Shown piece by piece: positions 61,657-62,323 of a DNA stretch of 64,000 nt. Position 1 is the first letter of the stretch. Every line of letters starts with the position of its first letter. The notes under the pieces were generated by a model. That model had not been told where the DNA came from and did no database searches. It saw nothing but the letters and a program-made list of their open reading frames with translations. This stretch comes from Escherichia coli (GTDB taxonomy: Bacteria > Pseudomonadota > Gammaproteobacteria > Enterobacterales > Enterobacteriaceae): the NCBI RefSeq assembly GCF_050320075.1, contig NZ_CP190018.1; one strand, given 5' to 3'. A program made the position numbers and the translations under genes.

Positions 61657-62204
61657 CCTTATCAATGACTTATCTCCCGACTTCCCGCCTTGCTTTTCCT
61701 AAACAGAACAATCGTAGAATATTCTTGAAGGGTTAGATCGTCACTGTTTTCTGTTCGATACTGTGACATTCAGCACTTGATTCGCTATGGATCTGACAGG
61801 AAGGTTTCGAGCGAAAATCTGCAGTTATTCAGTCGTTTTCTTATCGGTCACCATTATTCTTTTAGACATTGATCCTACGAAGCTGCCGCAAAGTTGGTGG
61901 TGGGAACTGAAGTTGCGTAGAGAAGGAGTCAATAATTGAGCCAAAAAAGGAACGCGGCCGTCAGATTAAAGCCGCGGGACAAAGTCCATAATTTCCAAGA
62001 GTTGTTGAATTTCCCAACTTTTTTGAAAGCCTTTGTATCATACTAACAAGTAAAAAAGGTTTAAATACCAAAATTAACCTATATTTCTGGTTAGCTTTAC
62101 CATGACAGATGACTTGCTCCTGGAGACATTGGCGCAGCCAGTCTGTATTGGTGAGTTGTGTATTTATTGTTCGCCGTTTTCTCAGTTTTTTCTACAGACA
62201 TAAT

Positions 62205-62237
62205 AAAAAAGACACGTCTCAAGCATGAGCGTGTCTG
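62205..62237 (-). terminator. Intrinsic terminator downstream of zinT
   Basis: Stem AGACACG/CGTGTCT with U-run on minus strand. Confidence 0.5.
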
Positions 62238-62323
62238 AGTTTGTCTTATTTATTTGTCTTGGTAAATTATTGTCGTTACTACTAGGCACTGTTCTGTTAA
62301 ATAATTGAATCAGCGAAAAAAAA

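Follow-up and report, generated by a model that had tools for sequence, protein, structure and literature searches.

The interval between zinT and serU occurs in two main forms in Escherichia coli. In K-12, the MG1655 record gives the gene order msrP, msrQ, zinT, yodB, serU (minus strand), mtfA and asnT, with zinT at 2041375-2042025, yodB (b1974) at 2042368-2042898 and serU at 2043468-2043557 (minus strand). YodB is a cytochrome b561 paralogue, and the K-12 protein (176 amino acids) matches the Pfam family PF01292, cytochrome b561, with an E-value of 3e-22. The other form has no yodB and is present in the well-studied strains UTI89, LF82 and Nissle. A search for literature treating yodB together with zinT found none, and one for yodB with cybB and cytochrome b561 led to a paper that appears to deal with plant pathogens.

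The locus described here belongs to an E. coli window of 64,000 nucleotides (NCBI RefSeq assembly GCF_050320075.1, contig NZ_CP190018.1), the term window standing for the whole stretch of DNA that was analysed. Flanking genes, their order and their orientation are the same as in the zinT-yodB-serU interval of K-12 MG1655 (b1973-b1975, 2041375-2043557), but no open reading frame (ORF) of about 176 amino acids with PF01292 is present between zinT and serU. The missing yodB is real; it is an ordinary accessory-gene polymorphism of which the window carries a common allele.

Layout of the zinT-serU interval

The interval and its immediate neighbourhood contain the following elements:

61595-61656, plus strand: attR, a 62-nucleotide duplicate of the 3′ end of serU
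61657-62103: non-coding spacer adjoining serU, 447 bp, equivalent to K-12 2043467-2043021
62104-62323: allele-specific segment, 220 bp, made up of the zinT 3′UTR, the terminator and about 100 bp of spacer
62201-62236, minus strand: predicted intrinsic terminator of zinT, 87 nucleotides past the stop codon
62324-62974, minus strand: zinT, periplasmic metal-binding protein of 216 amino acids (E=1.9e-147 to PDB 1s7d)
63231-63866, minus strand: msrQ, colinear with K-12 and placed by the RefSeq annotation of a near-identical strain (conserved synteny beyond zinT)

Positions 61657-62323 (667 bp, 39% G+C) comprise the entire spacer from attR to the zinT stop codon. The attR repeat ends at 61656, and therefore 61657 is the first chromosomal base past attR and opens the chromosomal flank. 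At the other end, zinT occupies 62324-62974 on the minus strand, so that 62323 simply adjoins its stop codon (62324) and no transcription terminator lies there. The initial annotation had regarded this right edge as the zinT terminator; the actual hairpin is found inside the interval, at 62201-62236. It was right, on the other hand, in reporting that the interval holds no ORF of at least 60 amino acids, the longest complete one having 50. An ORF of 69 amino acids with a TTG start (61527-61736) straddles the left edge; it includes the tRNA fragment and is not credible as a gene. That longer ORFs are missing is by itself unremarkable, because 60% of shuffled sequences of the same composition also have no ORF of at least 60 amino acids in 667 bp; only the comparison with K-12 gives it a meaning.

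This comparison was the check proposed with the initial observation, which placed yodB between zinT and serU in K-12 and allowed that this order might be wrong. The order in the MG1655 record is exactly the one assumed, and the alignment demonstrates that the gene-free interval is not shared by K-12, so the observation stands. By BLAST, window positions 64000-62324 align to K-12 2040349-2042025 (96.8% identity) and positions 62103-61595, attR included, to K-12 2043021-2043529 (96.5% identity), both colinearly. The breakpoints between the two alleles are the zinT stop codon and window 62103/62104. Between them, the 220 bp of the window (62104-62323) sit where K-12 has a 995-bp block (2042026-2043020) composed of a diverged terminator copy, a promoter region, yodB and a further 122 bp. 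Beyond the hairpin the two segments cannot be clearly aligned: in sensitive blastn and Smith-Waterman comparisons only the 37-bp terminator hairpin, outside yodB, aligns, with a local score of 32, the best of the shuffles scoring 30. When gap extension was made nearly free, a global alignment also gave short pieces past the hairpin, which were disregarded. No pseudogene remnant of yodB was detected in the 220 bp, neither sensitive blastn nor Smith-Waterman giving any residual nucleotide homology to the gene, and a tblastn search of the whole window with K-12 YodB reached a best E-value of 2.8, without a trace of yodB.

The flanking zinT is well conserved, its product showing three substitutions with respect to the K-12 protein of PDB 1s7d. 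Its predicted terminator consists of an 11-bp stem with one bulge and a 4-nucleotide loop, followed by the tail UUUUUAUUAU on the zinT strand; the 37-bp hairpin common to the window and K-12 reads CAGACACGCTCAT...GACGTGTCT. The fold has an energy of -16.4 kcal/mol (z=-4.57), which none of 200 shuffles equalled, and it has the arrangement expected of a terminator, namely a stable GC-containing hairpin with a U tract directly after it, downstream of zinT on its own strand. A homologous hairpin has been kept in K-12 and in Escherichia albertii despite diverged flanks, and this conservation lends indirect support to the prediction that termination takes place at 62201-62236. The element was missed by a consensus scan for promoters and terminators, in which loops were limited to 8 nucleotides; probably, if the two inner pairs closed across the bulge are not counted, the apparent loop exceeds that limit. 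As far as can be judged from the sequence, the terminator would be the only functional element identifiable in the 220 bp.

The serU prophage and the missing gene

The left end of the element inserted in serU is defined by three features:

13687-13776, plus strand: intact serU, tRNA-Ser(CGA), detected by ARAGORN and identical to K-12 serU
13715-13776: attL core, the 3′ 62 nucleotides of serU
13829-14854, minus strand: tyrosine integrase adjoining attL (Pfam PF00589, E=3e-11; PF22022; PF14659)

The presence of the serU 3′ repeat at both ends (attR is identical to 13715-13776 at 62 of 62 positions), with an integrase gene beside the first copy, identifies 13777-61594 as a prophage in serU. This prophage, of about 48 kb, separates serU from the spacer, and homology to K-12 restarts exactly at 61595, where K-12 2043529-2043468 aligns to attR. 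The attR assigned in the initial annotation is thus confirmed by the exact 62-nucleotide repeat, the intact serU at the other end, the integrase and the colinearity of the chromosome outside.

Loss of yodB together with prophage integration was one of the options considered from the start, and it may be extended to an imprecise excision from serU. The single argument in its favour is proximity, the missing gene being less than 1.5 kb away from an occupied tRNA integration hotspot. Against it, 447 bp of intact, K-12-colinear chromosome lie between attR and the allele boundary. Moreover, when the prophage was removed in silico by joining window 13500-13776 to 61657-62400, the resulting empty-site query of 1021 bp found a single uninterrupted match covering 80% or more of it in 1471 genomes, in which the yodB-less spacer accompanies an unoccupied serU and the flanks join seamlessly. 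The identity is 100% over the 1021 bp in Z142-2, 98.4% in UTI89 and 97.6% in LF82. For instance, the ST131 strain, 2 HS-C, WG5 and 95_0274 have serU, a spacer of 669 bp and zinT, with no inserted element. The yodB-less genomes of the UTI89/LF82 type differ from the window in that their serU is mostly unoccupied, whereas here it harbours the prophage of about 48 kb.

The reciprocal situation also exists, O157, O103:H2 and O121:H19 strains keeping yodB despite an occupied serU. Together with the strains that combine the absence of yodB with an occupied serU (Nissle, clone D i2 and O18) and those that combine its presence with an empty one (K-12, BW25113 and C43(DE3)), all four combinations of yodB and serU occupancy are found, from which it follows that the prophage is irrelevant to the missing gene. 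In addition, E. albertii has the yodB-less layout without any prophage. A deletion of yodB by the prophage is, with this evidence, almost certainly not what happened: the prophage entered serU independently and left the spacer untouched. Absence of yodB beside a prophage should accordingly not be taken as phage damage.

Distribution of the alleles and direction of change

The 220-bp segment is present in 2265 of 5426 complete E. coli genomes (about 42%) with 90-100% identity, and all carriers but one (2264) match at least 80% of it. The 995-bp block of K-12, annotated as "yodB: cytochrome b", is found in 3114 of the 5426 (about 57%). Both classes add up to 5379 of 5426 genomes on the assumption that they do not overlap, of which the counts give no direct proof. 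yodB is, in consequence, an accessory and not a core gene of E. coli, and the first option of the initial annotation, that the gene is absent in this lineage, proved to be the right one, with 220 bp in place of the yodB block. The same yodB-less allele, with a spacer of 667-669 bp and no annotated gene, occurs in UTI89, LF82, Nissle and ST131 (B2-type, the phylogroup labels being taken from well-known strain names and not computed) as well as in Z142-2. In this allele 220-222 bp separate the zinT stop codon from the shared 447 bp, a range into which the window falls. Its own version of the segment, which is 93.7% identical in ST131, belongs to a minority subtype, with no more than 20 genomes reaching an identity of 99% to it. 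The carriers of the yodB block that were seen include K-12, HS, BL21-derived, O157, O111, O103, O121 and O91 strains. From a practical point of view, the locus can serve as a sanity check for annotation and as a caution against assuming the K-12 gene order as the default of the species.

Two outgroup lineages, E. albertii and Escherichia sp. MOD1-EC7003 (a cryptic clade), sustain the polarity of the change. The E. albertii locus (GCA_027566015.1, locus L130, 6652-7215), reached through contigs encoding the ZinT sequence of this species, consists of zinT, a spacer of 564 bp, serU and mtfA, with no PF01292 gene. Its spacer has the same yodB-less layout as that of the window, terminator included, but it is about 100 bp shorter and contains many indels. 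The 230 bp that follow zinT in E. albertii are similar to the 220 bp of the window over the whole length (150 of 207 positions, 72%; z=8.9), and the serU-proximal part of the spacer is 79.5% identical. Taken alone, the distal half of the spacer is modestly similar between the two (z=3.4), while the 122 bp that follow yodB in K-12 resemble neither the window nor the E. albertii spacer (z=0.3 and 0.8). In the zinT 3′UTR, the similarity between the window and E. albertii amounts to z=7.0, and K-12 is less similar to either of them, its similarity to the window being only weak (z=3.7, against 3.2 for the other pair).

yodB is also absent in MOD1-EC7003. There, 5 bp separate the stop codon of zinT from the initial 144 bp of the flank of serU, and everything else in the spacer, including the terminator hairpin of zinT, is deleted. 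In the same genome (locus L115, 3890-5446) an element with an integrase gene adjoins a serU 3′ fragment that measures no more than about 15-17 nucleotides. Species-representative genomes were also scanned for the ZinT motif ENWPTYYP, which occurs in AdcA/ZinT proteins of Firmicutes too; the matches listed belonged mostly to Streptococcus, and the few Enterobacteriaceae among them included E. albertii and MOD1-EC7003 but neither E. fergusonii nor most of the cryptic clades. The zinT loci of Salmonella, Citrobacter, Enterobacter, Raoultella, Pantoea and Providencia were set aside as outgroups, since they have no msrQ, yodB or serU nearby and are uninformative on polarity.

Because the E. albertii spacer is homologous to that of the window and MOD1-EC7003 also has no yodB, the yodB-less spacer would most likely be the ancestral arrangement in Escherichia, and yodB a later import. 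We infer that a strongly diverged block of about 1 kb carrying yodB could have reached part of the species, probably through homologous recombination, one crossover falling at the zinT end and a second some 30-50 bp into the shared spacer. The distribution of differences from K-12 is in agreement with such an event. Within zinT there are 13 mismatches in 650 nucleotides (98% identity), evenly spread up to the stop codon. In the 3′UTR the two E. coli alleles differ by about 30%. At the opposite junction, 6 mismatches are clustered in the first 50 nucleotides of the shared spacer, as might be expected for the margin of an imported tract. The edges of the yodB block showed neither scars of mobile elements nor target duplications.

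The opposite direction deserves consideration, that is, an ancestral yodB that the lineage of this strain would have deleted without any part played by the prophage, the 220 bp being then a diverged remainder. The yodB allele is indeed the commoner one (3114 genomes), the alleles show weak homology in the zinT 3′UTR and terminator, and small deletions do happen at this locus, as MOD1-EC7003 with its remaining 144 bp illustrates. Even so, the spacer of the window is homologous lengthwise to that of E. albertii, including the distal part with no K-12 counterpart, and separate deletions in two species would not both spare the same non-K-12 sequence. Likewise, a 3′UTR about 30% diverged next to a zinT that differs by 2% fits an imported tract and not a simple deletion. 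Loss of yodB is thus considered unlikely, though it retains some weight, and import of the gene remains the preferred explanation.

Coding potential of the spacer and other features of the window

At least part of the 667-bp query is matched by 5420 of the 5426 complete E. coli genomes, those of the yodB type matching exactly 61659-62103. This wide conservation of the 447-bp stretch could suggest that it hides an unannotated small protein or small RNA, and a candidate for the former, the ORF of 50 amino acids at 61787-61939, is uninterrupted in all of six E. coli sequences, that of the window among them. Yet of the 8 nucleotides at which it differs from K-12, 6 alter the encoded residue; in E. 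albertii the frame is riddled with stops and indels, and MOD1-EC7003 has lost most of it. None of the seven small ORFs tested has a Pfam match, PF01292 included; an Rfam scan of 61000-64000 gave no credible match by E-value inside the interval, the sole hit that reaches into it being sX4 with E=0.51; and RefSeq annotates nothing at 61657-62103 in any of the genomes listed. The promoter- and terminator-like sites found by the consensus scan are as many as expected from shuffles. A hidden small gene is, for these reasons, highly improbable. One further structure was seen in the shared spacer:

61941-61976, minus strand (zinT orientation): weak terminator-like GC hairpin with a U run (z=-1.17, not distinct from shuffles)

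On the far side of zinT, between this gene and msrQ, positions 63167-63232 contain a REP-like element with a sub-threshold Rfam match to naRNA4/CssrE on both strands. In the ST131 genome inspected, a copy of IS1397 is located in this zinT-msrQ spacer.

The prophage itself carries additional genes:

27333-27408, plus strand: tRNA-Met(CAT), detected by ARAGORN
27513-27589, plus strand: tRNA-Arg(TCT), detected by ARAGORN
59671-61002, minus strand: MASE4-GGDEF diguanylate cyclase of 443 amino acids, very AT-rich (Pfam PF17158 and PF00990)

The diguanylate cyclase gene is the last intact prophage gene before attR and has a truncated tail-fibre assembly gene and a fragment of a capsid gene as neighbours; given these remnants around it, it appears to be cargo borne by the prophage. 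In the non-coding right arm that follows, positions 61199-61294 (plus strand) match the Rfam family CssrB with 44.1 bits, below the gathering threshold of 76 (E=6e-7). CssrB is a small RNA encoded in the chromosome of Shigella.

Strain MLI106K3 matches 61657-62323 at 100% and has in serU a related but different prophage, about 10 kb longer. At the split major capsid gene of the latter (locus L133, NZ_CP117020.1, around 1106500-1117700) there is an element of about 10 kb with genes for an integrase, a primase, an Icd-like protein, a capsid protein and a decoration protein, which may be a phage satellite. The prophage of the window does not have this element and contains about 2.9 kb of its own sequence there (39199-42081). 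The two tRNA genes of the window prophage lie upstream of the late region; at the corresponding place in the MLI106K3 prophage, RefSeq annotates tRNA-Ile and tRNA-Arg.

The chromosomal flank of serU is also found in phage records. In the lambdoid phages ev099, mEp332 and PhiR70_1, the prophage right arm, the attR fragment of serU and the chromosomal flank recur together as an internal copy. In mEp332 and ev099 the copy corresponds to 535 bp of the window (61400-61934), 278 bp of chromosomal flank included, with 97.8-98.7% identity; it occupies positions 2242-2776 in both loci (L127 and L128, respectively). For PhiR70_1 only the 276-bp match of the flank was measured (98.2%). In ev099 and mEp332 the copy is situated between a tail-fibre assembly gene and an AraC-type regulator, with transposase genes after it, and in ev099 an integrase is encoded beyond the regulator and the transposases. 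Two of these three records name the propagation host. The copy seems to be a remnant of aberrant excision at serU, of the lambda-gal/bio type, after which the integration module was replaced. Very doubtful is the idea that it gives these phages a RecA-mediated, integrase-independent entry to the serU-zinT spacer, or that it mobilises the zinT(-yodB) block and so accounts for the spread of the diverged zinT-3′UTR-yodB haplotype in E. coli. A further record, Escherichia phage SerU-LTIIb (KU052038), a lambdoid phage that integrates in serU, shows the 62-nucleotide duplicate of the tRNA-Ser 3′ end followed by the same chromosomal flank as the window; there, however, the pseudo-tRNA is succeeded by yodB, that is, by the K-12-type allele, whereas the flank of the window runs into the yodB-less one.
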